Virus record (IMG/VR): IMGVR_UViG_3300034073_004654
Coordinates: 1-64,000 of that record
Source: a virus
Direction: 5' to 3' (one strand)
Length of the DNA: 64,000 nt
The notes beneath the pieces were generated by a model. The model did not search any database. It was not told the DNA's origin and saw only the letters and a program-made list of their open reading frames with translations. Shown here piece by piece: positions 152 to 58,913 of this stretch; positions within the stretch are counted from its first letter, which is position 1; the number at the start of each line of letters is the position of its first letter. The translations under genes and the position numbers were made by a program.

Positions 152-565
152 TCAATAGGCTTCTGGATCGCATTTTCGACAAGTTCCATCACATGATCCA
201 TTTCCGCAAGCTGGAGCATAATATTCTTTTTGCCAACGATATTTCCTATCCTCATAATCGCGATCTATTATTTTTGCTTCAAGCATATCTTCATTATCAT
301 AAAGAGTAATTTTTCTTTTATTGATGTCTACATAGTTTTCCATGCCAATTTTACGACCTTTTAGAGATTCTATGTTTTTGACTTTCTCTACAACATCTTC
401 CCAATTTTTTCCAGTTACATCATATCTTTCAGTCACATCTCCAAATAAAGGCGATATCATTACAAAATAATTTGTTTCTTTTGCTTCTTCAGAAGATTCC
501 AAGGAACCAAGCTTATATTTAACGCTATAATAATTTGCAACTTTAAGAATTGATTTTAATGACAT
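152..565 (-). CDS. Leader-family hypothetical protein with C-terminal Cys cluster
   Basis: Starts MSLKSILKVANYYSVKY (shared leader); ends CGNGSCDGTCRKC. Confidence 0.8.
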   Translation of the reverse strand: MSLKSILKVANYYSVKYKLGSLESSEEAKETNYFVMISPLFGDVTERYDVTGKNWEDVVEKVKNIESLKGRKIGMENYVDINKRKITLYDNEDMLEAKIIDRDYEDRKYRWQKEYYAPACGNGSCDGTCRKCDPEAY

Positions 566-716: not shown

Positions 717-1934
717 GTGCAATTAGTAGAGAGGCATAGAATCAATAAAAATTCCTATAAAGGAAAGATTCTTGATAAGAAATTATTTTTATCAAAAAAT
801 CTTTATAATTCTGCCGTCTATCATTTTAGAAAACATTTTGAAATTACCGGAACTTATCTAGGTTATCATGTCTTAGATAAACAGTTCGCTTTAGAAAATC
901 AAATAGATTACAGGGCGCTACCGGCTAAAGTCGCACAACACGTATTGATGCAAGTTGATGACGCTTTTAAAAGCTTTTTTAAGGCACTTAAATCATTTAG
1001 AAAGAATCCTGTCAAGTTTACCTCAGCTCCAAAATTACCAGGATTCAAACACAAAACTAAAGGTAGAAATTTATTAATTTTCACTTCTCAAGCAATATCT
1101 AAGAAAAAAATGTCACCTTCTGGAATTGCTGAATTGCCATTACCAACAAAAATTCCACACAAAGATATCTGTCAAGTCAGAATAACTCCCGGCGACATTT
1201 ATCACACAATTGAAATAGTATACAATAAAACTGAAAAGCCTAAATCTAATGGTAATGTTATTGCTGCGTTAGACCCTGGAGTATCTAATTTAGCTACGGT
1301 TACTTTTACAAAAGGATCTCCTATAATCATTCCAGGTGGTCCGCTAAAATCTATAAATCAGTTTTATAATAAAAAACGATCTGAATTGCAGTCCAAATTA
1401 ACAGGAGATCAAAAAACTTCAAAACAAATTAAAAAACTTACTTCTAAGCGCAACGATAAAATATCTGATTATATGCATAAAGCTAGTCGATATTTAGTTA
1501 ATCATTTAGTTTCTCATGGAGTGTTCAAATTAGTTATCGGACACAACAAATCCTGGAAACAAGAGACTAATATGGGTAATAAAAATAATCAAAATTTTAT
1601 TAATATCCCGCATAGCAAATTTTTTGCTTTGTTAAAATATAAATGTGCTTTAGAAGGAATAGATATTGTAGAAAGAGAAGAAAGTTACACTAGCAAATGT
1701 AGTTTTCTAGATTTAGAGCCCATTAAGAAGCAGAAAAAATATATGGGAAGAAGATTGAAAAGAGGCTTATTTAAGTCTAAATCTGGAACCAAAATAAATG
1801 CTGATGTTAATGGCTCTTACAATATCTTGAGAAAGGAAATCCCAGAAGCTTTTAGTGATGGGATAGAGGCTGTATTAGTTCAGCCAATAAGGATAAAACC
1901 TTATAAAAATAAATTGTGGAATATTTTTCTATAA
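717..1934 (+). CDS. tnpB: IS200/IS605-family RNA-guided endonuclease TnpB (no TnpA nearby)
   Basis: SKNLYN N-terminus, RuvC-I ALDPG, EESYTSKCS, INADVNGSYNI RuvC-III. Confidence 0.9.
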   Translation: MQLVERHRINKNSYKGKILDKKLFLSKNLYNSAVYHFRKHFEITGTYLGYHVLDKQFALENQIDYRALPAKVAQHVLMQVDDAFKSFFKALKSFRKNPVKFTSAPKLPGFKHKTKGRNLLIFTSQAISKKKMSPSGIAELPLPTKIPHKDICQVRITPGDIYHTIEIVYNKTEKPKSNGNVIAALDPGVSNLATVTFTKGSPIIIPGGPLKSINQFYNKKRSELQSKLTGDQKTSKQIKKLTSKRNDKISDYMHKASRYLVNHLVSHGVFKLVIGHNKSWKQETNMGNKNNQNFINIPHSKFFALLKYKCALEGIDIVEREESYTSKCSFLDLEPIKKQKKYMGRRLKRGLFKSKSGTKINADVNGSYNILRKEIPEAFSDGIEAVLVQPIRIKPYKNKLWNIFL

Positions 1935-5329: not shown

Positions 5330-5342
5330 AATAATGACATAT
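5330..5342 (+). promoter_or_regulatory. Candidate late-promoter motif AATA-N5-ATAT
   Basis: AATAatgacATAT upstream of leader gene 5361. Confidence 0.55.
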
Positions 5343-5360
5343 TAAAATAAGGAATTAAAT

Positions 5361-6635
5361 ATGTCGTTAAAAGATTTAATTAAAGTTGGAAATTATTACG
5401 AAATTAAATATAAATTTTTAAAATTTGCGGAAGATGATGCTCATGCTCGTTCTATTGCTTTAATGAAATTTCTTTCTGGGATAGCTAAAGAATTAGGAAT
5501 TGCAGAGCACGTTTATGTTGTAGGTGGGGCGGTTAGAAATTATCTTATTGGTCAGCCTATAAAAGATATAGATGTAGTTATTGATTCTGTATTATCTGGT
5601 TATGATTCTGAATGGTTTGCTGAGCAGATAGCAAAGAAAATACAACCTGTTAAAAGTAAATTGACTACCAATAATTACGGGGTAGCGATTTTATCTATTG
5701 ATCCATCTTGGGTATTAGATGGTCATTCTATGTTAGGTCCAAAAGGAACTGGAGAAACAATAGAAATAGCCAATGCTAGAAAAGAATCTTATGGTGGATC
5801 GGAGGGTAAAGGATATAAGCCTCATTCAGTAGAAACTGCTACCATTGAAGAAGATTTATTGCGTAGAGAATTTACATTTAATACTCTTTTGTGGAGGCTA
5901 TCTAACTTAGCAGAAGGACCGGAAAAAGCTGAAGTATTAGATTTATTGGGTCGAGGCAAGTCAGATTTATCTGAAAAAATTTTAAGAACTCCGGCAGATC
6001 CGGATAAAACATTTTCTGATGATCCTACCAGGATGTTACGAGCTATTAAGTTTGTAGCTAAATATAATTTTAAAGTTCCTGAAGATATGTTGGAGAGTAT
6101 TAGGCGCAATGCTTTTAGATTAAATCAAATGCCTTGGAATGCTGTTAGAAATATTTTAATAGATGATATTTTAAAAGCTCCGAATCCAAGAAGGTCAGTA
6201 ATGTTATTGAAGGAGATGAGGCTAGCAGATGCATTAAAAGAAATGATTGAATCCAATCCTGAATTTAAGACTTCTTTGGGAAGAAGTTTTAATGATAATA
6301 CAGATCCGATGTTATTGTTGGATCTATTGGATTTGGATTGGGACATGAAAACGCCTATAAGTTTCTTAAACAATATACAACAAGAAAGATTACGAGAATT
6401 ATTGTTAGAAATGGATGAATCCGATGGTCGCGAATATGTTAAGGCTCTAATTAAGCCTCCTGTTGATTTGCAGTTCTTTTTTAAGAATTTTAACATTCCA
6501 GAAAAAGAGCGCAAGGGAGTTATTTCTATTGCAAGAGATTCTCTTTTAGAAAATCCAAATTTATTAGAAGATCTTAAAAGTCTAACAAGTGAAGTTGAAA
6601 GTAAGTTGGGGAAAATCTGGCGTCGCAACGATTGA
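5361..6635 (+). CDS. cca: Class II tRNA nucleotidyltransferase (CCA-adding/poly(A) polymerase family) with N-terminal leader
   Basis: VYVVGGAVRN...DID, EEDLLRREFTFN, DDPTRMLRAIKF motifs; leader MSLKDLIKVGNYYEIKYKFLKFA. Confidence 0.88.
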   Translation: MSLKDLIKVGNYYEIKYKFLKFAEDDAHARSIALMKFLSGIAKELGIAEHVYVVGGAVRNYLIGQPIKDIDVVIDSVLSGYDSEWFAEQIAKKIQPVKSKLTTNNYGVAILSIDPSWVLDGHSMLGPKGTGETIEIANARKESYGGSEGKGYKPHSVETATIEEDLLRREFTFNTLLWRLSNLAEGPEKAEVLDLLGRGKSDLSEKILRTPADPDKTFSDDPTRMLRAIKFVAKYNFKVPEDMLESIRRNAFRLNQMPWNAVRNILIDDILKAPNPRRSVMLLKEMRLADALKEMIESNPEFKTSLGRSFNDNTDPMLLLDLLDLDWDMKTPISFLNNIQQERLRELLLEMDESDGREYVKALIKPPVDLQFFFKNFNIPEKERKGVISIARDSLLENPNLLEDLKSLTSEVESKLGKIWRRND

Positions 6636-7519: not shown

Positions 7520-7864
7520 ATGTCAATTGATAATTTTGTTAGAAAGAATAAAGATCTAGGATTTCGACCTGCTAAGTATTTTCGTTATGAGGGGTCGGAG
7601 GGAATTCGTAATTTAGCTCGATTGGCTAAGGGATTGGGATATGAAGATCCCATGAATCTTGGTTATTTTGATGGGGCATGTTATGGTGATTTGATTTATT
7701 TGCTCGAAGATAATCCTGGGCTTGTAGAAGTGATGCTGGATTGGTTGGAGGAAAATTTCGAGTCTGAATTGGATGATGATTCCGAGGATGATGATTCTGA
7801 AGATGACGAGGACGATGATTCTGAAGATTTGGATAGCGACGATAAAGATGATGAGGAAGATTGA
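7520..7864 (+). CDS. Hypothetical protein with acidic tail
   Basis: ORF; D/E-rich C-terminus. Confidence 0.75.
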   Translation: MSIDNFVRKNKDLGFRPAKYFRYEGSEGIRNLARLAKGLGYEDPMNLGYFDGACYGDLIYLLEDNPGLVEVMLDWLEENFESELDDDSEDDDSEDDEDDDSEDLDSDDKDDEED

Positions 7865-7875
7865 GGAGTTAAATC

Positions 7876-8364
7876 ATGGCTGAATATTATACATTGTTTT
7901 GCGAAAAGCTTGAGATTCGTACTTCTGAGGAATATGAGTGGCTAAAGCGAGTTTATGCTTGGACGCCAGAAGAAGATGGGGGAATAAATCTCGAGGATAT
8001 GGAAGCAGAAATTGAGCGAGTAAAGGAAGAACTTGGCTTTGATCTAAGTTATGAAGATTTTGATACTTTTCCAGAACATCAATATGAATTGACTTCTGAA
8101 TCTCTCAGGGTATATTCTGAGGAAGATTTAAGTACGGGAACGGTTAGCAGGATTATTCAGGGATTTCTGCGGAAATTTCGCCCTGATGAATGTTTTTCAA
8201 TTACTTGGGCTTTTACTTGTAGTAAAACTTGGGTAGGGGAATTTGCGGGAGGGGCGGTATTTATCACGGCAGATAAGATTGAAGATCATCATGTTCGTAA
8301 TTTCGTGATGCAAAAAGAAATGGAACATGAGAAAAGAATTGCAGCTAAGAAAAAGGCAATTTAA
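7876..8364 (+). CDS. Hypothetical protein
   Basis: GAGGAG SD; WAFTCSK...EFAGGAVFITA. Confidence 0.75.
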   Translation: MAEYYTLFCEKLEIRTSEEYEWLKRVYAWTPEEDGGINLEDMEAEIERVKEELGFDLSYEDFDTFPEHQYELTSESLRVYSEEDLSTGTVSRIIQGFLRKFRPDECFSITWAFTCSKTWVGEFAGGAVFITADKIEDHHVRNFVMQKEMEHEKRIAAKKKAI

Positions 8365-8388
8365 GAAAGCATAAAAGTAAGGTAAATT

Positions 8389-8640
8389 ATGGCAAAGGCA
8401 TTTGAATCTCCTGTAACTTTGGATATGGTTATTTACGATAGTTTTGATTATGTAGATGGAAAGGGAGCGACCAGAAATGTTGTTCGAAAACTAATTCCTA
8501 AAAAGCTTCCTACTTCTAAGAACGAGTCTATTCTATTTAAGGTCTATGAAGATAATGATGTGGAATTTGGTTTAATGATGATGCCAATTTCTGAGTTTAA
8601 CAAGTATGTAAACAGAGGTGAATTTAAGATTGCTTGTTAA
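8389..8640 (+). CDS. Hypothetical protein, probable paralog of 12355..12636
   Basis: Shared MPxSEFxxxVxxGxx C-terminus. Confidence 0.7.
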   Translation: MAKAFESPVTLDMVIYDSFDYVDGKGATRNVVRKLIPKKLPTSKNESILFKVYEDNDVEFGLMMMPISEFNKYVNRGEFKIAC

Positions 8641-8646
8641 AAACAA

Positions 8647-8685
8647 ATATCTCTCAAGGTAAAAATCTTGAGAGATATTTTTTTT
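8647..8685 (+). terminator. Intrinsic terminator
   Basis: atatctctcaag/cttgagagatat plus T run. Confidence 0.75.
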
Positions 8686-8724
8686 GGTTATAATTTAACA
8701 TTATAATATACTTAAGGAGAAATT

Positions 8725-9282
8725 ATGTCATTAAAAAGCATGTTAAAAGTAGCTGATTATTATAATGTTAAATATGGTTTTGATAAATATAGCGGAGATG
8801 TAAGGGTAGAACAAACGGGTCAGGGCAAAGTAGCGGAGTTGCTTTTCTCACAAAATCCTGCGGCGAATTTGTTGAGCTTAAAACAAGCTAGCAATGATCT
8901 AATCACTATGACATTTGTAGATAAAATTAGAAAGTTATCAGAAGATAAAGCTGAAGGAAATAATCTTACTGTTTCTTTATATCCTGAAATTTTGGTAGCA
9001 TCTCAAAACTCAGGGACTATTACTCCCAAGGCAACTATAGATATTACCATGTCTCCTGGTGAGAAGTCTTTTATAGGAGATCCTGAAACTCAAAAATTAA
9101 TTAATGAATTACAAGTAGCTTATAATCAAGAATATAAAAAATTATCTCGTCAGAGTTTTGAAGCCAGAGCAAAAGAGATAAGTAGCAAAAATCAATTTTA
9201 CGAAAATTTGAATGCAGCTGGAAACGATGAAAATACTGTTAAATCTAAATTCACTGTTTCTCAAACGGATGTGTTTGAATAA
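8725..9282 (+). CDS. Leader-family hypothetical protein
   Basis: MSLKSMLKVADYYNVKYGFDKYS; AAGGAG SD. Confidence 0.8.
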   Translation: MSLKSMLKVADYYNVKYGFDKYSGDVRVEQTGQGKVAELLFSQNPAANLLSLKQASNDLITMTFVDKIRKLSEDKAEGNNLTVSLYPEILVASQNSGTITPKATIDITMSPGEKSFIGDPETQKLINELQVAYNQEYKKLSRQSFEARAKEISSKNQFYENLNAAGNDENTVKSKFTVSQTDVFE

Positions 9283-9409
9283 TTTAAAAGTTTCATGATT
9301 CAATTAATCAAAGATCTTTCGGCAACTCTTGCTGTTATTAGCGGAGTTGCCATTTTCTTTTACTATTATTTCTTGTTTTGATAGCTGCAAACTATCTGCA
9401 ATTAAGTTG

Positions 9410-9437
9410 TTGACAGGTAAAGATCGCGCCTTATGTT
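9410..9437 (+). promoter_or_regulatory. Sigma70-type promoter
   Basis: TTGACA-N16-TATGTT; AAGATC spacer; upstream AACTATCTGCAATTAA box. Confidence 0.75.
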
Positions 9438-9476
9438 GGTAGGGTCGCAGATAGAAGCGATCAAAGGAAGCAAATT

Positions 9477-9986
9477 ATGAACTATACTCTTGAGATTGTT
9501 CCCGATATCGATCCGATTAATCCTCGTGAAGATAGGGAATTTAGCACTATCTATTATAGTTCTTATCGTTATACTCTTGGTGATGAGTGCGTTTCTAAAG
9601 AGGAGATTGATCGCATTATCGAAGATAAGGATATGGTGTATCTTCCGGTTTATGCTTATATCCATGGTGGGGTAATGCTGAATACTTCTGGATTTTCTTG
9701 TCCTTGGGATTCTGGAATGAGCGGTATTATTGCGGTATCCAAGGATAAGATTCGCCGGATTTACAATACCAAGCGAGTTACTAAGAAGATTCTGGAGCAA
9801 GTTAATAATCGTCTTAAGGCGGAAGTTGAGGAGTTTTCTCAATATCTGAACGGTGAAGTCTACGGTTTCCAGGTTAAGGACGCAAACGGAGATATTGTGG
9901 AAAGCTGTTACGGATTTTATTCCGAGGAGGATGCAGAATCCGAGGGTAAGACAGTTTTGGATTATTTCAATAAGAAGGCGGCTTGA
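9477..9986 (+). CDS. Conserved hypothetical phage protein
   Basis: NPRE...LPVYAYIHGG...CPWDSG...YLNGEVYGF. Confidence 0.8.
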   Translation: MNYTLEIVPDIDPINPREDREFSTIYYSSYRYTLGDECVSKEEIDRIIEDKDMVYLPVYAYIHGGVMLNTSGFSCPWDSGMSGIIAVSKDKIRRIYNTKRVTKKILEQVNNRLKAEVEEFSQYLNGEVYGFQVKDANGDIVESCYGFYSEEDAESEGKTVLDYFNKKAA

Positions 9987-10142
9987 TATGATTCAATATT
10001 ATTCCGGGGAGAATTTCGATAAGATTACGAACCTAGCATTGAAACTGGCAGATCAAGCCAGAAATAATGGTAGGGTTAATCCTCAATATGGATATTCTTC
10101 TGAGGATTGGGCGGAAGCTCAAAAGTTGATTCATAACAAGGC

Positions 10143-10170
10143 TTGACGTTAAAAGATTCTGAGTTATCTT
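10143..10170 (+). promoter_or_regulatory. Sigma70-type promoter
   Basis: TTGACG-N16-TATCTT, AAGATT spacer. Confidence 0.7.
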
Positions 10171-10197
10171 ATAAGGTAAAGGATAAGGGAGGTTATT

Positions 10198-10644
10198 ATG
10201 GGTTTGGATATGTATCTCAGCCGTAAGACGTATGTTAAGAATTGGGGATACGATACTTGGAAGGTTACAGTTACCTTTGAGGGTAAGCCTTCTCATATCG
10301 ATCCGGCAAAGATTGCTTATATTGAGGAGGAGATTGGATATTGGCGAAAAGCCAATCAAATTCATAAGTGGTTTGTGGATAATGTCCAAGATGGAAAGGA
10401 CGATTGTGGGGATTATTATGTTTCCCATGAGAATTTGGCAAAGTTGAAGGATCTTTGTCAAAAGGTTTTGGACAATCCTAATTTGGGATCTCAATTGCTT
10501 CCTACTACCAGTGGTTTTTTCTTTGGTAATACGGATTATGACCAGGATTATCTGGATGATCTGAGGGAAACTATTAAGATTTGCGATGATGCCATGTCGG
10601 TGGAATCTGGCAAGGCAAGTCTTTACTATAGTTCTAGTTGGTGA
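10198..10644 (+). CDS. Conserved hypothetical phage protein
   Basis: MGLDMYL...YWRKANQIHKWF...LLPTTSGFFFG...YSSSW; GGAGG SD. Confidence 0.85.
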   Translation: MGLDMYLSRKTYVKNWGYDTWKVTVTFEGKPSHIDPAKIAYIEEEIGYWRKANQIHKWFVDNVQDGKDDCGDYYVSHENLAKLKDLCQKVLDNPNLGSQLLPTTSGFFFGNTDYDQDYLDDLRETIKICDDAMSVESGKASLYYSSSW

Positions 10645-10701
10645 AATTAAGTAGCTCCAAGGGATAATCTTTAGAGTGAGGTTATCCCTTGGAGTTATAA
10701 T

Positions 10702-10995
10702 TTGAGAAAGTTGTTTCATATGAACAGAATTGGATATTGGCAGCATCTTATGTTGAAAAACATCTTTAATACCAGGCAAGGAGCTTTTTATTCTCTTATG
10801 GAGCTGCGGGGAAATGCCAGGAAATACGAGCCAGTATATCAAAGGCATTTGCTAAAGGCGATTGAATTGCATAATGCTGGTGTGATTTCTGGAAAAAATC
10901 GAAAGCGTTGTTCGCCTATTCCTATGGGATATCGAATTGAGATTGGAAAATATGGTCCTAAAGGTGGTAAGGGATATTTGCTGGTAAAGATTTGA
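10702..10995 (+). CDS. Hypothetical protein
   Basis: ORF track; start uncertain. Confidence 0.55.
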   Translation: MRKLFHMNRIGYWQHLMLKNIFNTRQGAFYSLMELRGNARKYEPVYQRHLLKAIELHNAGVISGKNRKRCSPIPMGYRIEIGKYGPKGGKGYLLVKI

Positions 10996-11012
10996 GTGAA
11001 TATGTCGCTGTG

Positions 11013-12260
11013 GTCAATTACCACCAGCACAAGGCTGGTGGCTTGTAAGTAGCATTTCTGCCCCTACAATAGGCTGATTGACAACAGCCCCATTGGATAG
11101 CTTATAGCTATCCAATGCTCTAATGCTAATATTTCTACTAGCATTCAAGTCTGCATTTAGTTTAAATCCACAGCTTTTACAGCAAAAATTAGCTTGATTT
11201 TTCCTGTTCTTTTTATCTATGTTTCCACACTTGCTACATTTTTGACTAGTATAAGCTGGATTTACATAAACTACATTTATGCCTTTTGCTATTGCTTTAT
11301 AAATCAAAAACTGTTCTAACTGATAATAATTCCAGCTATTTAAAGCTGCTCTTTGACGTTTTCTGACTTTTTGATTTCTAATACCAGTCAATTTCTCTAA
11401 AGCAATAGTGTCACCTGAATTTAAACTGTTTATTATTTCTTTACTTATCTTATGATTAAGATCTGCCTTAAACCGTTTTTCCTTACCTGATAATTTCTTA
11501 AGGTGTCTTTTAGCAGATTTGCTTCCATTTTTTTGTAAGTTACTTCTTAATGTTTTACGTTTCTGGCAAATTAATTTTAATTTATCTCCAGAATAAAATT
11601 TATTATTTGAAGTAACAGCTAGTTTGTTTATTCCTCTATCAACTCCTAAAAATTTTCCATTCGATTTAATATCTTCAATATCTTTTTCAAAAGATATGTG
11701 TAAGTAGACCTTTCCTTTTTTAAGGACAAGATCAGCACTGGTATATTTCCATCCATCAAAATAATGCTGATAATATACTGGAATATTTAGTTTAATTTTT
11801 TTCCTACCATCAATTGTTAAAATTGACACTTCTCCAGATTTAAGCAAAGAATAGCTATTACAATCTAATCTAATAGAGGACAGTTTGGATTGTGGACATT
11901 TGCTGTATTTATTTTTACTTTTAATGCTTTTTAAAGCTTCTACTGCTTTGGTTCTGGCTGAAATAGCTAATTGTGATGGTAGGTTAAAATTGGCTCTACA
12001 ATCTTGGTAAGTTAATTTATGAAGTTCAATAGCGTTAGATATTTTATTATCATAGCCAACTTGACAAACTAAGTTAAATGCATTAGTATAGGCTTGCAAC
12101 GATGGTAGAATTTGATCTACCTTCATATTAAGTTTTAACTTAGCAGTCCTACATAGCTTCATATATGAATATATAAAGTTATGCATAGAAATTTAAAAAA
12201 ATTAGAAAGGGGCAATTCCTCCACCAGCACGAGGCTGGTGGTATCCTTGCCAAGAAGATT
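11013..12260 (-). mobile_element. IS200/IS605 (IS1341-like, TnpB only) element
   Basis: Matching subterminal hairpins caccagcacRaggctggtg at both ends; inserted 3' of TTCAT on minus strand; right end TTGAC; no target duplication. Confidence 0.9.
11014..12162 (-). CDS. tnpB: RNA-guided endonuclease TnpB
   Basis: GVDRG, IALEKL, YTSQKCSKCG...FCCKSCG zinc finger, NADLNASRNI. Confidence 0.93.
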   Translation of the reverse strand: MKLCRTAKLKLNMKVDQILPSLQAYTNAFNLVCQVGYDNKISNAIELHKLTYQDCRANFNLPSQLAISARTKAVEALKSIKSKNKYSKCPQSKLSSIRLDCNSYSLLKSGEVSILTIDGRKKIKLNIPVYYQHYFDGWKYTSADLVLKKGKVYLHISFEKDIEDIKSNGKFLGVDRGINKLAVTSNNKFYSGDKLKLICQKRKTLRSNLQKNGSKSAKRHLKKLSGKEKRFKADLNHKISKEIINSLNSGDTIALEKLTGIRNQKVRKRQRAALNSWNYYQLEQFLIYKAIAKGINVVYVNPAYTSQKCSKCGNIDKKNRKNQANFCCKSCGFKLNADLNASRNISIRALDSYKLSNGAVVNQPIVGAEMLLTSHQPCAGGN

Positions 12261-15287: not shown

Positions 15288-15364
15288 CCGACCTTAGCTC
15301 AATTGGTTAGAGCATCCGACTCATAATCGGCAGGTTTTCGGTTCAAGTCCGAAAGGTCGGACCA
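15288..15364 (+). tRNA. tRNA with CAU anticodon (Ile2 or elongator Met)
   Basis: ccgacct/aggtcgg acceptor, ctcataa loop, ttcaagt T-loop, encoded CCA. Confidence 0.92.
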
Positions 15365-18390: not shown

Positions 18391-19056
18391 TCATAAATAT
18401 GTTAGATTTACTAAGCCCGAAAGCTCTTTAAATTGCTTCAAGTCATATTCATCTTCTATATCAGATAGCTTTTGAATAATATTTTCAATTGCCTGGTTTC
18501 TTTCTTGCCATTTTTCAGGGAATTTTGGTAGTTTTTTCTTTAAGAGAATATTATATAATTTTTTTAATTCCTTTTCTGCTTCAAATAAACGCTCATCTTT
18601 GGAGCCTTTTTTTAACAATCCTGTTATTGCTTCATATAAAGACTGTATGCGATTTCTAATTATGCTTTCTTGGGGGTGTAATTTCGGGCTCGAGCTTTCA
18701 AATTTTATATGATTATATAATGTTGTAAATTTTGGAGATTTTAAATATGATTCTCTTATTTTTATAAGCCTTTGAAAAGCATTTTCAATTTTTTCAGAGT
18801 TGCGTGGATCTGTTTGTAAATCGTACACTATTTCTTCTAGTTCTTTTTTTGCTAAGGCTAATTGTTGCTGTTCGGCAGCAGAATATTTAACAGCTTCGGT
18901 AGGACTTAATGCTTGTTTTAATCCGCCGTATAAACTTCTCATGCCTTTCATAATGGATAAATTATCAGGTTTTTGAATATTATTTTGAGACAATTTATCA
19001 AAACCATATTTAATATTATAATAATTTGCTACTTTGATAATTGAATTTAATGACAT
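18391..19056 (-). CDS. Leader-family helical hypothetical protein
   Basis: MSLNSIIKVANYYNIKYGFDKLS. Confidence 0.8.
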   Translation of the reverse strand: MSLNSIIKVANYYNIKYGFDKLSQNNIQKPDNLSIMKGMRSLYGGLKQALSPTEAVKYSAAEQQQLALAKKELEEIVYDLQTDPRNSEKIENAFQRLIKIRESYLKSPKFTTLYNHIKFESSSPKLHPQESIIRNRIQSLYEAITGLLKKGSKDERLFEAEKELKKLYNILLKKKLPKFPEKWQERNQAIENIIQKLSDIEDEYDLKQFKELSGLVNLTYL

Positions 19057-30096: not shown

Positions 30097-30166
30097 GCCT
30101 TGCGGGACGGATTCCCAGTGAAAACTTCTAATTTTTACGTTCTATGTTCGACTCATAGGCAAGGCG
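30097..30166 (+). tRNA. Atypical tRNA-Arg(UCU) with non-canonical D-arm
   Basis: gccttgc/gcaaggc acceptor, gaaaa-cttctaa-ttttt anticodon arm, ctatg-ttcgact-catag T-arm; no U8, no CCA. Confidence 0.6.
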
Positions 30167-30299
30167 CTAACCTTAAAGGTTCGAATCTTAAATTAAAAAA
30201 TAAAAGCATAGGTAAAATAAAAAAAATGATGTAAGTAAAAAAATCTTGATATAGAATAAGAAGCTAAAAACAAAACAAGCAAAGACACTGAACATATAT

Positions 30300-30579
30300 T
30301 CTGGAGTAGCACAATAGGTGGTGCAATCGGCTGTTTATAAATGGCAGCTTTCTATAGTAATGTAGATTGAAAAAGACTCTAAATTCAGGGAACCCTTCAT
30401 CGAAAGATATGGCAATCCTGAGCCAAACCGGGAAACCGGGAGGTGCAGAGACTATAATGGGTCCATCCTTTAAAGAGGATGATGGGATAGTCCAGACTAC
30501 AAACAATAGAAATATTGGTAATGAAAATTATAGTAGCAAAGTAACCGATTGGTTATTGGTTCGACCCCAATCTCCAGAG
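30300..30579 (+). tRNA. tRNA-Asn(GUU) with intron (exons 30300-30334 and 30542-30579)
   Basis: tctggag/ctccaga acceptor, G73; splicing gives atcgg-ctgttaa-ccgat anticodon arm. Confidence 0.9.
30335..30541 (+). ncRNA. Group I self-splicing intron (IC3-like), 207 nt, in the anticodon
   Basis: P aaattcagggaa, Q aatcctgagc, R gcagagacta, S gggatagtcc; 5' exon ends in U, intron ends in G; P1 gctgt/gcagc. Confidence 0.9.
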
Positions 30580-30662
30580 CAAATAAAACGAGGCTAGTTA
30601 ATTCTAGTCTCGTTTTTTTTATTTCTAGTCGAGAGGCTATAATAATTACACATCATAGCCTT

Positions 30663-31366: not shown

Positions 31367-32389
31367 ATGTCAAAAATCTCAAAAATCCTAGAAGCCTGCG
31401 ATATTTTCTCTCGTCTTGTAAAAAAAGCTGATTATTCAGCTGACATTACAGATGGCAAGAAAGCTTTAAATAATTTGAAATCCGTCATTGAGGGATTGGA
31501 TATTGAATCTTTTAGAAGGATTTTAGAAGAGGAAAATGACGAATATCGTTATTTACCTGGAAGATTAATGGGGGATAAATATAAAGATTGCAGGGTTCAA
31601 TTTCAATATAAGGATGAACCGCAAAAAGAAGATAAGTTTATTAATTTTGAAATAGTTAACAGGGATGATTACGAGGATTATGAAGCTTATGAGGATGATA
31701 AGCCAATATCCACTCCAATTGGACCTGCCATTTTACAAGACGGCTATGATTTAGAATTAATATTAGATATTGATAGTTTTTCAAGTCATCGAAATTATTT
31801 ATTTAGTGAAGGTCGAACTCGTCCCAGTGAATTTTTTGAATTTAAAATAGAAGAAGGAGCTGAAGAAGATGAATACATTAATGACTTAGATGAGGCTTAT
31901 TTAATTGGATTAAAGAAAGCAATTATTAAGGCTTGTTCAAAGGAGCAGCCTGCATTTTATCATGAGGTGGCTCATTTAAGAAGAATGAGAAAGCAAAACC
32001 CTATAGAATTTATTAAGCAATGGAACCCATCAAAATCGCCCAATGTACCATTAAATTTGATGAAAGCTAATTTTAAAACTGATACTGAGTTATATCCACA
32101 GGAGTTGGAGCGATTTTCTAATGAACTTCGCAAATTAATTAATGAATTTAATTTAAGAAAAAGCAAAAGAGATCCTTCTTGGGAGGAGCTAAGTTTCTTG
32201 GATTTCTTGGATCAAATTTATGATATGCGGTCCAAACATAATTTTATTACATCTATGAAGGGAAGAATGGATATCGGTCTTGGTTTCTATGATGAATATG
32301 ATGATTATTCAAAATCCGCGATAAAAAGAATTTCCAAGTTTTACGATGACATGGTAGCTGGGAAATTTAAAGATACGCTTGGCATTTAA
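31367..32389 (+). CDS. Leader-family protein with HExxH motif
   Basis: MSKISKILEACDIFSRLVKKA; FYHEVAH. Confidence 0.75.
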   Translation: MSKISKILEACDIFSRLVKKADYSADITDGKKALNNLKSVIEGLDIESFRRILEEENDEYRYLPGRLMGDKYKDCRVQFQYKDEPQKEDKFINFEIVNRDDYEDYEAYEDDKPISTPIGPAILQDGYDLELILDIDSFSSHRNYLFSEGRTRPSEFFEFKIEEGAEEDEYINDLDEAYLIGLKKAIIKACSKEQPAFYHEVAHLRRMRKQNPIEFIKQWNPSKSPNVPLNLMKANFKTDTELYPQELERFSNELRKLINEFNLRKSKRDPSWEELSFLDFLDQIYDMRSKHNFITSMKGRMDIGLGFYDEYDDYSKSAIKRISKFYDDMVAGKFKDTLGI

Positions 32390-32406: not shown

Positions 32407-33255
32407 ATGTCAAAGATTGTGAAACTTTTAAAAGCCTGCGAGATATTTTCTCAATTGGTTAAGAGTGCTCAAGAGCAATTAGAATTACCTTTTGGTGAAG
32501 ATTTGAAATATGGCGATCCTGGATATTGGGAATATGCCAACGATGAATCAATTAATTATGATTTTGATGAATGGGTTAATGGATACATCACCATAACGTA
32601 TACTGATTTATTTAAGTTTTTTGACAGGTTAGAAATAAAATATAAAGCTTGTGGAAAAACTTTGCAACCAGCATGGGGATTGGTTTTTAATCATGATGAT
32701 GAAAAATACGTTTTAACTTTTGAAGGAAAAGTTAGTAACATTGAGGAGTTAAGACGATCTGAGAATGAATGTGATTCTCCTACTGAAGCTAAGAGTTTTG
32801 TTGTTGGGGCTGATGAAGATGATTTAGATAGATATGTAGGAGAATCTACGATAAGCGAAGATTTTTGGGAGTCTCCATCGGTCTTATATCATGCTACAAG
32901 TTTTGATAATAAAGAAGACATTTTAGAGGATGGATTAATTGCAAAAAATGATGCTAGGGCGATTATAAATAAATCTGTTGGTTCGGCAGTTTTTACAAGC
33001 ACCAATCCTGATGCAATTGATGCTTATGGTGGATTAATCTTTGAAATTGACACTCAAGCAATGAAAGCAAATGGTTACACTCCAGAGATCGGAATAGAGC
33101 CAGACATCATTGAAGGCGAAAGAAAGCAATCATTGGCTCATATGGTTGGATTAGAAGATTATAATTATGATTATACCGACATTGGGGTGGACCCTGATAC
33201 CATCATTGTTTTTGGCGATATACCTAGTGAATATTTAAAGGTTTACCAAGAATAA
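32407..33255 (+). CDS. Leader-family protein with ADP-ribosyltransferase/Tpt1-like domain
   Basis: LYHAT....EDILEDGL...AVFTS...YG.LIFEID...IP.EYL; leader MSKIVKLLKACEIFSQLVKSA. Confidence 0.65.
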   Translation: MSKIVKLLKACEIFSQLVKSAQEQLELPFGEDLKYGDPGYWEYANDESINYDFDEWVNGYITITYTDLFKFFDRLEIKYKACGKTLQPAWGLVFNHDDEKYVLTFEGKVSNIEELRRSENECDSPTEAKSFVVGADEDDLDRYVGESTISEDFWESPSVLYHATSFDNKEDILEDGLIAKNDARAIINKSVGSAVFTSTNPDAIDAYGGLIFEIDTQAMKANGYTPEIGIEPDIIEGERKQSLAHMVGLEDYNYDYTDIGVDPDTIIVFGDIPSEYLKVYQE

Positions 33256-33820: not shown

Positions 33821-34624
33821 ATGTCATTAAAAGATTTAATTAAAGTAGCGAATTATTATAATGTTAAATATAGTCTTGAAGCCGAAGAATCTTTAATAAA
33901 GGAAGCGGCTGGCAAATATGATCATATTGATTTTAGACCACCTGAATCTGTGGCAAAAGCAGCGGCGAGGGGATTGGAGCTGCGTAAGAAGAATAAAGGC
34001 AAAGGCGGATTATCTGTGCAGCAGGCACATAAGCAAGGAATAGGATCTGGGGTAGCTAGGGCTGCGTCTTTAAAAAATCGAAAAACTTTAAGTCCAGCTA
34101 CTGTGCGTAGGATGAAGGCATTTTTTGATCGTCATGAAAAGAACAAGGGCGCTAGCGGTGGAAAACCTTTAGCACAAGATAAAGGGCATATTTCTTGGTT
34201 GCTTTGGGGTGGCGATCCTGGTCGAAGCTGGGCGAATAAAATAGTAAATCAAATGAATGCAGCAGATAAAAAAACAGTTAGAGCGGCTATTGAATATTTA
34301 TTACGCAAGAATGGCAGTGCTTCTATTTACCCTCATCCAAGCTCCGAGGAAAGGTTATTTAATCCTGACATGGTGGGGCAAGTCATTCAAGAAATTGGTG
34401 GTCGGGAAAATTTCGATTCTCTTTTGCCGAGAGAAAACCAAATAGCTGATTTTATATCTGCTAAGGAAATTCTATTAGAGAAAGTAAAGAACGCTTATGA
34501 AGAATATAAGGCTTTAAATCCATATAGCTTTGATGATGATGATGAGAAAGCTCAAGCATATCAATTGGTAATTCAATATATTGAGAATTCTATTGATGAT
34601 GCGAAAAATTTGTACAGGAACTGA
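33821..34624 (+). CDS. Leader-family protein with a basic domain recalled from phage head-associated proteins
   Basis: AGGAG SD; MSLKDLIKVANYYNVKY; ARGLELR...GVARA...RMKAFFDRH...WLLWGGDPG..WA. Confidence 0.75.
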   Translation: MSLKDLIKVANYYNVKYSLEAEESLIKEAAGKYDHIDFRPPESVAKAAARGLELRKKNKGKGGLSVQQAHKQGIGSGVARAASLKNRKTLSPATVRRMKAFFDRHEKNKGASGGKPLAQDKGHISWLLWGGDPGRSWANKIVNQMNAADKKTVRAAIEYLLRKNGSASIYPHPSSEERLFNPDMVGQVIQEIGGRENFDSLLPRENQIADFISAKEILLEKVKNAYEEYKALNPYSFDDDDEKAQAYQLVIQYIENSIDDAKNLYRN

Positions 34625-34626
34625 GT

Positions 34627-34992
34627 ATGTCAAAGGCTATTAAAATTCTACAAACCTGTGAGGCGTTTTCTTCCTTGGTAAGGAAAGCGGATTATCTAAC
34701 GGACCCAATAGATGATAGGAAGGAGTATTCTATTTATTCGGAAGATGAGGTTAGTCTATTGGACTTAGAATTTAGCAACCTAATTAGAAAATTTTATATA
34801 GAGAAGAATTTACAAAATCCTGGATTTACTTTTCCTGATTATTTACTTGAAAAGTACAAGATATCTACTAAAGAAGAATTTATTAAATACATAACTGAAA
34901 AATTAAATGTAAATGAATATGACGAGATTGACAAGATGGGTAAATTTTACGATCGAATGACCAGGGGAGATTTTGATCAATTGATTCAATAA
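34627..34992 (+). CDS. Leader-family protein, short paralog of 31367..32389
   Basis: Shares LVxKADY N-terminus and KFYDxMxxGxF C-terminus. Confidence 0.75.
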   Translation: MSKAIKILQTCEAFSSLVRKADYLTDPIDDRKEYSIYSEDEVSLLDLEFSNLIRKFYIEKNLQNPGFTFPDYLLEKYKISTKEEFIKYITEKLNVNEYDEIDKMGKFYDRMTRGDFDQLIQ

Positions 34993-35017: not shown

Positions 35018-35383
35018 ATGTCGATAGCAAATCTTGTTAAATTAGCCAATTATTATGAAGTTAAATATAAATTCGCATCTGGATATGATTTAAGAGAGCG
35101 TTCCGTCGATTTTTGGAATGAAGTAGAGTCTGAATCAAAACAATTGGTTACAAATTTTATGGCAGTAAATGCCGAAGGTGATCTTGGGGGAGAAGAAGCG
35201 GCTAAGTTAGCCTTCAATATGCAAAGTGAAATTGATAATTTGGTTGAAAATTTTTCATTAAAATTTAATGAAAAATTTTCGAAAAATCTTGACAAAATAA
35301 AATTAAAAGAATACATTGAGCTAACCATACAAGAAGAATTAGAATCAATTTCTGAAACATTAAACATTGAATTGCCTAATTAA
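35018..35383 (+). CDS. Leader-family acidic protein
   Basis: MSIANLVKLANYYEVKYKFA. Confidence 0.8.
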   Translation: MSIANLVKLANYYEVKYKFASGYDLRERSVDFWNEVESESKQLVTNFMAVNAEGDLGGEEAAKLAFNMQSEIDNLVENFSLKFNEKFSKNLDKIKLKEYIELTIQEELESISETLNIELPN

Positions 35384-55188: not shown

Positions 55189-56676
55189 ATGAGAAACTAT
55201 TCAAAAATTCTTAAACAAGCAAAAAATTTTGAAAAAAAAGTACATGAAGTCAATCCTTCAGTTGTCGTAACAGAACATGAAGGCGTAGACCCTGTTTCTT
55301 ATATGGCTTTTAATAATTTAAAAACCGTTATCAATGATGCCACCGAATTATTATCTATTTTAAATAATGAAGATGATCTTCCTCAATGGGTAGATGAAAT
55401 GTTAGCTATGTCTAAAGGCAATGTGTCTAAAGCTTTAGATTATGTCCGATCTGAAAAAACTGAAACAGAATCTTTGCTAGAAGATGAAGACCATGATCAT
55501 GAATTAATAGCAGAGGGTCAATATCGAGGCTTCTTATCTTCTGTTAAAGACGTTTTTAATAGACCTAAAACAGATCTCGAAATTAAATTGGTACAAATTG
55601 ACGAAGAACTTAGAGATGCTTTCTTATCTTATGGTCCATCAGAATTATCATTGACTAAAAATTTAAATTTGGCTCAAAAATCAATTAATGAAAATAACTT
55701 CTTAAAAGCAAGAAAGCATTTAACGGATTTTAATAATGCCTTGCAATTCATGTCAAATAGAGCAACTGATTTTATTAATTATTCTAAGCTCCCAGGTAAA
55801 CAAGCTGGGTTTTTCGATTTTTTTAAAAGTAAAAAAGAACAACCTGTTCGCACAGAGATTTCTCAATTATTGTTTGAACAATTTAATAAATTAATTCTTG
55901 CTGGGGAAAGTACCTTAATAGCGGTTAAATCTATTTTTGAAATGCTGGATAAATATCGTTCAGATAAAAATATTAATGCTTATATAAGCATGTTAGAATC
56001 ATTGAAAAATGAACAAAGAATTTTTAGTGAAAAATTCGACACTCTTAAAAAAGAATATTTTATGTATTTAGGCGAAACTGGCAGTGAAATGATTGGTAGT
56101 ACTTTAAAAGAAATGAAAAAAGACCTGTATCAGCCTAAAGAAGATAAATATGTTGGAGTTGGCGGATTGGAAACATCTCAAGCTCCAATTAAAGCATTAA
56201 AATTTGAAGTTCCGCCACCAGAAGCTAAAAAAGATCAATTTACAGGATATGATGTTTCCGCTCCAGAATCTGAGTTATCTCCTTGGGCAAAACAAATGTT
56301 GCCAGTTTCTCCCAAATTTGATCGTGTAGATGAAACGGGAGAATGCCCATGCGGTAGTAGATTGCCATGGCTTGCATGTCATGGATTTGACGAGAATAAA
56401 TTTGAAAAAATGAGGGATGAAATAACGGACAAAATGGCAAAAGACATAATGATTAAAAAGAATATTTCTTACAAAGAAGCAAAAGAAGAAGTAAAAGAAG
56501 AAGCAGAAAGACAAGCAGAAATTAGATATTATAACTGGGTTAATCTTTATCTTGCTCGTAAAGCCAGGATAGAAGCAGAAAAAGAAGCTAAAAAAGAAGA
56601 GAATCGTCAAAAGAGAATTAAAGATTATTTAAAATTTGAATCTAATGTTGAACATATATTTCCACAAAGAGCATAA
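55189..56676 (+). CDS. Leader-family multidomain protein with SEC-C motif
   Basis: MRNYSKILKQAKNFEKKV; DLPQWV; internal KQAGFFDFF; CPCGSRLPWLACHG. Confidence 0.75.
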   Translation: MRNYSKILKQAKNFEKKVHEVNPSVVVTEHEGVDPVSYMAFNNLKTVINDATELLSILNNEDDLPQWVDEMLAMSKGNVSKALDYVRSEKTETESLLEDEDHDHELIAEGQYRGFLSSVKDVFNRPKTDLEIKLVQIDEELRDAFLSYGPSELSLTKNLNLAQKSINENNFLKARKHLTDFNNALQFMSNRATDFINYSKLPGKQAGFFDFFKSKKEQPVRTEISQLLFEQFNKLILAGESTLIAVKSIFEMLDKYRSDKNINAYISMLESLKNEQRIFSEKFDTLKKEYFMYLGETGSEMIGSTLKEMKKDLYQPKEDKYVGVGGLETSQAPIKALKFEVPPPEAKKDQFTGYDVSAPESELSPWAKQMLPVSPKFDRVDETGECPCGSRLPWLACHGFDENKFEKMRDEITDKMAKDIMIKKNISYKEAKEEVKEEAERQAEIRYYNWVNLYLARKARIEAEKEAKKEENRQKRIKDYLKFESNVEHIFPQRA

Positions 56677-56787: not shown

Positions 56788-57387
56788 ATGATTCGTTTTC
56801 TTGATAAGCTTCCCCGAGAATGTGTTGTTGCTTGTTCTGGTGGTGCTGATTCTATGGCAGCATTGTCTTTTCTTACCAATCATACTAAACGCAATGTTAC
56901 CGTTGCTTATTTTGATCATGGTACAGAATTTGGCACTCAAGCTAAAACCTTCGTTCAAGATTTTTGCTCGTTCAATGGTTTGTCATTAACCATTGGCTCT
57001 ATTAATTCCGAAAAGCCTAAGGATGAATCTTGGGAAGAATATTGGCGGAATCAACGCTATCGCTTCCTGCATAGCTTTGACTTGCCTGTTATTACCGCCC
57101 ATAACCTTAATGACCAAATGGAAACCTGGCTGTTCACAGGCTTTCATGGAAATTCTCGACTAATCCCATATCAAAACAAGAACGTTATTCGACCATTCAT
57201 GTTGACTCTTAAGTCTGAATTGATCGAGTGGTGCAAATTCAAAAATGTTCCCTGGCTGGAAGATCCGTCAAATCAGAACACCAACTTCATGCGAAATAAA
57301 ATTCGACATGATATTTTGCCGGAAGTTCTAAAAGTTAATCCGGGATTCGATAAAGTCATTCTTAAGAAAGTTATGGAATTGATTTAA
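56788..57387 (+). CDS. tilS: tRNA(Ile)-lysidine synthetase, catalytic domain only
   Basis: ACSGGADSM PP-loop, DHG, RNQRY, TAHNLNDQMET, RP, EDPSN, RNKIRH. Confidence 0.9.
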   Translation: MIRFLDKLPRECVVACSGGADSMAALSFLTNHTKRNVTVAYFDHGTEFGTQAKTFVQDFCSFNGLSLTIGSINSEKPKDESWEEYWRNQRYRFLHSFDLPVITAHNLNDQMETWLFTGFHGNSRLIPYQNKNVIRPFMLTLKSELIEWCKFKNVPWLEDPSNQNTNFMRNKIRHDILPEVLKVNPGFDKVILKKVMELI

Positions 57388-58836: not shown

Positions 58837-58913
58837 CCGACCTTAGCTCAATATTTGGTTAGAGCAGTGCGCTCATAACGCAACGGTTCACGGTTCAAGT
58901 CCGTGAGGTCGGA
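58837..58913 (+). tRNA. Second tRNA with CAU anticodon (Ile2 or Met), no encoded CCA
   Basis: Same ccgacct/aggtcgg acceptor as 15288; ctcataa loop; followed by CAA. Confidence 0.9.

Follow-up and report, generated by a model that had tools for sequence, protein, structure and literature searches.

An open reading frame (ORF) at positions 5361-6635 of a 64-kb stretch of viral DNA (the window) encodes a full-length class II tRNA nucleotidyltransferase that carries an added 23-residue leader at its N-terminus. Comparison with relatives indicates that this leader belongs to a lineage-wide family of terminal tags that occur at either end of orthologous proteins, and we tentatively read the tag as a signal for loading proteins into the assembling phage head. 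The window is the first 64 kb of the 76,892-bp viral record IMGVR_UViG_3300034073_004654 (GC content, 35%). The source is an uncultured huge phage, of which the record is only a fragment (completeness, 21% by CheckV, corresponding to a phage genome of about 360 kb). A megablast search with 25 kb of the record against phage records gave no match. The features of the gene itself are as follows.

5349..5353, plus strand: Shine-Dalgarno-like AAGGA, eight bases upstream of the ATG, read from the sequence
5361-6635, plus strand: tRNA nucleotidyltransferase ORF, 424 residues, ATG start, intact
5361..5429, plus strand: leader or putative address tag, residues 1-23 (MSLKDLIKVGNYYEIKYKFLKFA), with the core K-V-G-N-Y-Y; common to five other ORF starts
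5430..6635, plus strand: class II tRNA nucleotidyltransferase body (head, neck, body and tail; stop codon included), identified with Pfam, PDB, AlphaFold and Foldseek

A tRNA nucleotidyltransferase with an added leader

The initial annotation had recognized class II nucleotidyltransferase motifs in the ORF, and these were borne out by motif, family and fold matches. The PolyA_pol head domain of Pfam (PF01743) matched residues 51-209 over profile positions 1-126 (E = 2e-16), with a score of 60.9 bits against a curated cut-off of 23, and the ORF matched the tRNA nucleotidyltransferase family phrog_2244 with an E value of 3e-33. Motif A consists of GGAVRN at residues 55-60 and the catalytic carboxylates D69-I-D71; across 80 aligned orthologues, G55, G56, R59, D69 and D71 are invariant, as are D221 and R224 of motif D, the nucleotide template (D220-D221-P-T-R224). 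Motif B reads R168-R169-E170, in which Glu replaces the Asp of RRD and is nearly invariant across the subfamily, and a motif E-like helix, AVRNILIDDILK, occupies residues 261-272. Sequence matches in the PDB were the CCA-adding enzymes 6ibp and 7otr (E = 1e-18). An AlphaFold model made from the orthologue alignment (pLDDT, 95.1) found the CCA-adding enzymes 6qy6, 7otr and 5hc9 as its top Foldseek matches (E = 1e-13; probability, 1.0; 358-410 columns), followed by A-adding enzymes and poly(A) polymerase. We conclude that the assignment to the class II tRNA nucleotidyltransferases, over the full length of the ORF, is secure; the enzyme is predicted most likely to be CCA adding.

Hundreds of close relatives of the enzyme lie on metagenome contigs of up to 760 kb. 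In some orthologues, Pfam detects an additional HD, 2H-phosphoesterase or GIY-YIG domain, and these predicted fusions fit a role in tRNA-end repair. CCA-adding enzymes of huge phages have already been described (Al-Shayeb et al. 2020, PMC7162821), and the enzyme as such is ordinary for huge phages.

Only the two closest orthologues (P0002 and P0003; 80% and 74% identity) share the leader, and orthologues at 60-66% identity lack it and begin at DAHGRSIALMKFLS, which corresponds to residue ~25 of the window enzyme. In a search of one prokaryote genome per species (185,579 species), the nearest match was 45% identical and came from a contig in an "uncultured bacterium" bin, and the true bacterial homologues were at most 32% identical and had ordinary N-termini. 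We had looked for cellular homologues with the same N-terminus; the ordinary bacterial N-termini, together with the leaderless orthologues, leave the initial annotation's claim of an extension standing. In the AlphaFold model, the leader forms a helix at residues 3-9 and then the start of a long helix at 12-44, with pLDDT values of 70-85, below those of the body. We conclude from the alignments that the leader is a clade-specific extension outside the family fold.

The first ~20 residues of the ORF are MSLKDLIKVGNYYEIKY. A six-frame scan of the 76.9-kb record found the leader at exactly six ORF starts (5361+, 33821+, 8725+, 35018+, 565- and 19056-) and nowhere else. The five other ORFs are listed below; the tagged ORFs of the window have almost no Pfam or PHROG matches.

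152..565, minus strand: unrelated leader ORF of 137 residues; no Pfam or PHROG match
8725..9282, plus strand: unrelated leader ORF of 185 residues, found by leader scan and profile
18391..19056, minus strand: unrelated leader ORF of 221 residues; AATAATTAAATAT 29 nt upstream
33821..34624, plus strand: leader ORF of 267 residues with a "GKYDHIDF...WGGDPGRSWA" domain (phrog_2859, E = 1e-12); AATAATTAAATAT 25 nt upstream
35018..35383, plus strand: unrelated leader ORF of 121 residues, found by leader scan and profile

The initial annotation described the leader as nearly identical on five unrelated proteins. The number of other ORF starts and the unrelatedness of their bodies were confirmed, but "nearly identical" is too strong, identity to the leader of the CCA enzyme being 12-14 of 23 residues. 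The six copies follow the consensus M-S-[LI]-x-x-[LIM]-[ILV]-K-[VL]-[AG]-[ND]-Y-Y-x-[VI]-K-Y, and a profile built from them recovered each copy with an E value of ~1e-15, the next ORF scoring only 0.18. Among the leader codon pairs, 40 are synonymous but different; Ala10, for example, is encoded by GCA, GCC, GCG and GCT. Identity in the 30 nt upstream of the six ORFs is only 35%. Because the leader is kept at the protein level through synonymous change, a DNA repeat or an RNA signal is excluded.

One tag at either end of orthologous proteins

Counts across orthologues were made with a strict pattern, [RK][LIVM][LIVMA].[RKE][FYW], in 112 single-domain orthologues. Thirteen had the motif at the N-terminus, 60 had it at the C-terminus and none had it at both; in the enzyme cores, 44,650 residues in all, it occurred once. 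At least 10 of the 39 pattern-negative orthologues carry variant tags by eye. In its majority form, the tag is ..PERVAARFLLR at the extreme C-terminus; the minority form is N-terminal, for example M..APKVVDRFLQKRA followed directly by the core. The short form of the motif is [KR]-V-A-x-[KR]-[FY], as in "ERVAARF." An AT-rich orthologue, P0065, starts with MRISSIIENFYNLA (MRISSIIENF...), which resembles the leader of window ORF 27956.

A second protein family behaves in the same manner. When 120 proteins homologous to the ORF 33821 body were compared, the MSLK..KVANYY leader was present in 5 and ..LLK[VL]A.KFE.KL in at least 48, while 17 began at the core domain; in homologues, the MSLK..KVANYY leader is replaced by "..LLKVADKFEEKL." As judged from these alignments, KVANYY, KVADKF and RVAARF are forms of a single motif, [KR]-[VIL]-A-x-[KRY]-[FY], carried by terminal helices that can be exchanged, where the equivalence of the AT-rich leader and the GC-rich RVAARF tags rests on orthologue position and the six-residue motif. 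The window leader, with its core KVGNYY, would thus be a member, beside relatives with KVADKF or RVAARF, of an amphipathic-helix tag family of phage-G-like megaphages. Since the tag stands at either end of orthologues and is swapped in a second family, we conclude that the leader belongs to a lineage-wide, position-swappable tag. "Five unrelated proteins" hence understates the case, the sequences indicating that the leader is one variant of this family. Exchange between the N- and C-termini within one orthologous enzyme, as deduced from the alignments, is new here and fits the behavior of a modular address peptide.

These comparisons bear on whether the leader has any sorting role. It could instead be a first-helix extension that aids tRNA binding or dimerization, or a neutral mosaic module spread by recombination, and the predicted structure, with residues 12-44 modeled as one continuous helix running into the body, is in keeping with the former. 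We consider both very improbable: the same peptide is found on five unrelated proteins here and on others in other phages, orthologues bear the equivalent tag at the far C-terminus, and conservation is at the protein level across synonymous change.

Pattern searches of viral contigs found the leader on a 78-kb relative with 34% GC (G004). The profile of the six leaders detected, beyond those six, one G004 protein with an E value of 0.001; viral contigs held no match to a strict DNA pattern back-translated from the leader, and a looser pattern matched one of them, again G004. In this contig, MSLKSIIKVANYY, a leader as in the window, starts a 195-residue protein. Literature searches returned no paper on the tag or on a virion-packaged CCA enzyme.

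Other leader-like starts were observed in the window. A second leader type, MSK[IA].K[IL]L..C..FS.LV[KR]KA, begins three neighboring unrelated ORFs on the plus strand (31367-32389, 32407-33255 and 34627-34992). Looser leaders, with a helix ending ..F..L[VI]K.A, start ORFs 27547-, 27956, 29744-, 39618, 42111, 51034-, 52286, 53228, 54386 and 55189. A conserved stretch, ..VDPSVVVEEHEGVEPVSYMA.., follows the leader in many phages (homologues P0247-P0336), and a similar post-leader stretch, ..EVNPSVVVTEHEGVDPVSY.., is present in the 495-residue ORF at 55189-56676 on the plus strand. The ..VDPSVVVEEHEGVEPVSYMA.. stretch could be a processing or docking site.

Expression, head genes and the destination of tagged proteins

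A promoter-like motif precedes the CCA gene, and four tRNA genes of the window have no encoded CCA.

5330..5342, plus strand: promoter-like motif AATAATGACATAT (AATA-N5-ATAT), 19 nt upstream of the CCA start codon
16433..16515, plus strand: tRNA-Leu(CAA) without encoded CCA, a possible substrate; sequence call
30097..30167, plus strand: tRNA-Arg(TCT) without encoded CCA; sequence call
30300..30580, plus strand: tRNA-Asn(GTT) without encoded CCA, with a 207-nt intron at position 36 (ARAGORN); not reported by Rfam at the gathering threshold
58837..58913, plus strand: CAT-anticodon tRNA without encoded CCA (Rfam, 57 bits), downstream of a TilS-like PP-loop gene

AATA-N5-ATAT occurs 26 times in the window, compared with 10.1 ± 3.2 times in shuffled sequences (a 2.6-fold excess; none of 100 shuffles reached 26). 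Of these copies, 13 are no more than 70 nt upstream of a same-strand gene start, nearly all of them starts of leader-type genes. The motif is found before the CCA gene and before roughly ten further genes of the leader type, at distances of 7-56 nt; example sites are 5330, 19085(-), 33784, 45696(-), 51069(-) and 52254. The initial annotation placed the four CCA-less tRNA genes behind sigma70 promoters. All four lack CCA; promoter sites were checked only for tRNA-Leu, which has a sigma70-like 9/12 site about 59 nt upstream, and for tRNA-Met(CAT) at 15288-15364, which has an encoded CCA and is preceded, with a 9-nt gap, by the sigma70-like sequence TTGACA-17-TAAAAT (11/12). AATA-N5-ATAT is thus a candidate phage-specific promoter class, distinct in sequence from the TTGACA-type sites before tRNAs. 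Its repeated occurrence suggests that the leader-type genes are coregulated, and the tagged genes may be expressed late.

Around the CAT tRNA, the gene order is the TilS-like PP-loop gene at 56788-57387 on the plus strand (Pfam ATP_bind_3, E = 6e-33), an AAA ATPase gene and the tRNA at 58837-58913. This tRNA is probably tRNA-Ile2, accompanied by its lysidine synthase.

Genes for capsid, scaffold and protease were not found on the 77-kb fragment; because these are absent, the link between tag and head rests on relatives. Viral contigs that carry a relative of the enzyme measure 363-416 kb. In the 416-kb viral relative (G001; 87% complete), the head module runs terminase, portal, head maturation protease and major head protein, followed by four consecutive small tagged genes. 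The major head (capsid) protein belongs to phrog_2522 (E = 2e-49) and is 40% identical to gp27 of Bacillus phage G and 48% identical to that of Tunturi 5. In G004, whose capsid protein also belongs to phrog_2522 (E = 1e-77), two tagged genes lie beside the capsid gene with only two homing-endonuclease genes between; the tail and baseplate proteins of this contig carry no tag. A head maturation protease is present in relatives, and in three of them the prohead protease begins with MAF[LS][KR]YA.A, a loose resemblance to the tag. Phage G has its own start, MKRLIKK..., on at least nine proteins, three of which are encoded in the portal-protease-capsid block.

The kinds of protein that carry tags are also informative. 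G001 encodes a tagged type IB topoisomerase (Pfam, E = 4.5e-24), and a weak DUF5591 match was found among tagged proteins. Three other MKRLIKK proteins of phage G carry a "YHGTS" motif, and window ORF 32407-33255 (plus strand; 282 residues), which has the other leader, contains "..VLYHATS..ILEDGL.." with a weak match to the RNA 2'-phosphotransferase family phrog_5470 (E = 0.027). From the motif, these "YH[GA]TS" proteins may be ADP-ribosyltransferases or Tpt1-like. Enzymes of such kinds are packaged elsewhere: poxvirus particles carry a topoisomerase, and T4 virions contain the ADP-ribosyltransferase Alt. Purified phage G particles yielded 104 proteins, among them many nucleic-acid enzymes (PMC12484599); the main text of that paper does not name the MKRLIKK-tagged proteins. 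The capsid-adjacent tagged genes of relatives, the enzyme kinds and the large particle proteome are circumstantial support for packaging.

We propose that the terminal helix would dock to a component of head assembly (scaffold, protease or capsid protein) and that the docked enzyme would be loaded into the interior of the assembling head. Part of the CCA enzyme pool would thereby end up in virions and reach the next host together with the DNA, where it could finish the CCA-less phage tRNAs or rebuild tRNA 3' ends damaged by host defences. Head loading fits best because the helix works at either end, marks proteins of many unrelated kinds, is concentrated near the capsid gene and is missing from tail proteins; on sequence evidence, we give the reading of the tag as a head-loading signal a little less than an even chance. 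The wider proposition, that phage-G-like megaphages load dozens of unrelated enzymes (the CCA enzyme, type IB topoisomerase and ADP-ribosyltransferase-like proteins among them) into the head by means of this family of terminal helices, is tentative, with a slightly lower chance.

Several observations weigh against head loading or against parts of the scheme. In seven aligned copies, the residues after the KY[KG]F that ends the leader show no conserved pattern that could be a prohead-protease cleavage motif. Apart from the enzyme and the leader, the window phage has almost no genes in common with G001 or G004. Tagged genes occur at dispersed sites in the genomes, and the CCA gene lies among accessory genes (DUF1281_C and DUF2786/DUF7168) rather than in a head module. 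Phage G and Tunturi 5 have CCA enzymes of another lineage that carry no tag, and the GC-rich RVAARF tags escape a profile made from the six leaders. By eye, the capsid protein of G004 has a leader-like N-terminal helix, with a similarity that is not significant. Finally, the sequence of the enzyme is compatible with CCA-, CC- or A-adding and with poly(A) activity; motif B reads RRE and not RRD.

The dispersal of tagged genes among nonstructural genes also favors another destination, a phage or host hub such as a multi-enzyme assembly for RNA or DNA repair, a compartment for replication or translation, the membrane or a chaperone, in which case the CCA enzyme would act in the producing cell only. 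The tags, whether N- or C-terminal, form short amphipathic helices that contain basic and aromatic residues and resemble MinD-type membrane-targeting helices; several tagged proteins are RNA or DNA enzymes (the CCA enzyme, topoisomerase IB, the Tpt1-like proteins and the weak DUF5591 match), and one tagged protein of G004 is J-domain-like by eye. However, the near-invariant V-A-x-R-F core favors a specific protein groove over generic membrane binding, tagged genes form a run of four in the G001 head module and adjoin the capsid gene in G004, and no candidate hub was identified. We regard docking to such a hub as unlikely, though worth serious consideration.

A signal at one terminus or the other, in mutually exclusive positions, would also suit a degron or stability signal, read by an AAA+ protease, that times the lifetime of a class of phage proteins. 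ClpXP-type degrons function from either end. Phage G is reported to encode ClpX and ClpP (PMC12484599). However, we found no ClpP gene in G001, in G002 (a relative that is 76% complete) or in other fragments. The conserved helix of ~20 residues is, to our knowledge, longer and more conserved than known degrons, and a degron would leave the clustering beside the capsid gene unexplained. We consider a degron improbable.

If the tag is a head-loading signal, as we favor, the injected proteome of uncultivable megaphages would be predictable from sequence, and the CCA enzyme would be the first virion-delivered tRNA-maturation or tRNA-repair enzyme. The DNA would arrive with a ready enzyme kit that includes a builder or repairer of tRNA 3' ends from the first minute; tRNAs, CCA ends included, are targets of several anti-phage defences. 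A tag that acts from either terminus could also be put to use for packing foreign proteins into large capsids. If the capsid were not the address, a position-swappable tag on many unrelated proteins across a lineage would still amount to an undescribed sorting system.

Further observations concern the G004 capsid region. As a candidate relative of the leader, the N-terminal helix of G004-type capsid proteins (..SSLKDALQTLVKYAAVLEE..) was rejected: it scored 23, where background windows averaged 22.8 and 47% of them did equally well. A complex prediction for the G004 capsid protein with the 40-residue leader region gave a score of 0.00, which, being without controls, speaks neither for nor against binding. 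The capsid gene (10773-11783, minus strand) and its homologues P0121-P0240 encode a conserved N-terminal extension of ~44 residues that is not in the capsid proteins of G001 or phage G and may be a propeptide; the capsid proteins of this clade are 85-100% identical, on contigs of 420-480 kb. Directly downstream of the capsid gene, positions 7714-10648 (minus strand) hold the two homing-endonuclease-like genes (phrog_4645, E = 1e-32 and 1e-49), one of them fused to a methyltransferase region. In the G001 head module, a uracil-DNA-glycosylase-like ORF (by eye; 10071-10727, minus strand) comes right after the four tagged genes.

Elsewhere in the window, TnpB/Cas12f-like genes lie at 11014-12186 (minus strand) and 717-1934 (plus strand) (Cas12f1-like_TNB, E = 6e-24; OrfB_IS605), with a homologue in G004. 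Beyond the window, positions 65084-69556 of the record hold three large ORFs (396, 442 and 653 residues) that by eye resemble the YeaH/YhbH, SpoVR and PrkA trio.

Comparison with known systems

The capsid targeting sequence (CTS) of phage T4 is a short N-terminal peptide of the internal proteins IPI-III and Alt. It is cited in PMC5694885. Like the CTS, the tag is a terminal peptide that recurs on unrelated proteins of a single phage (here, on six ORFs within 76.9 kb). Among the T4 cargo is an enzyme whose action on the host begins immediately after injection; the proteins tagged here include ADP-ribosyltransferase-like ones. Unlike the CTS, the tag has no sequence similarity to it, is not followed by an L/I-x-E cleavage motif, is also C-terminal and is found on far more proteins. 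Head loading by this tag would amount to the T4 internal-protein system on a far larger scale.

The peptides that load cargo into encapsulins, and the encapsulation peptides of bacterial microcompartments, are short, often helical, placed at either terminus, and dock enzymes on the inner face of the shell; encapsulin shells have the HK97 fold. The tag shares their modularity and their N- or C-terminal placement on orthologues, never at both ends (13, 60 and 0 of 112). The motifs differ, and those shells are cellular organelles, not virions. Unlike both these peptides and the CTS, the tag is a predicted packaging signal.

In the HK97 fold lineage of capsids to which the relatives belong, a further parallel exists. 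Duda, Oh and Hendrix reportedly described, in 2013, a C-terminal capsid-targeting tail of the HK97 maturation protease, a terminal peptide said to suffice for entry into the procapsid. The C-terminal position is that of the tag in 60 orthologues; the HK97 peptide serves one protein, whereas the tag here marks a putative cargo family.

The enzyme itself has the same full-length fold and the same catalytic motifs as bacterial class II CCA enzymes (6qy6, 5hc9 and 1miv) and the CCA enzymes of huge phages, and, as with the latter (PMC7162821), a tRNA-rich phage also encodes the enzyme. The window subfamily, which at ≥50% identity was found only on huge-phage or metagenome contigs, differs from the CCA enzymes of cells, phage G and Tunturi 5 in having a terminal tag and a family-specific insertion in the head domain.

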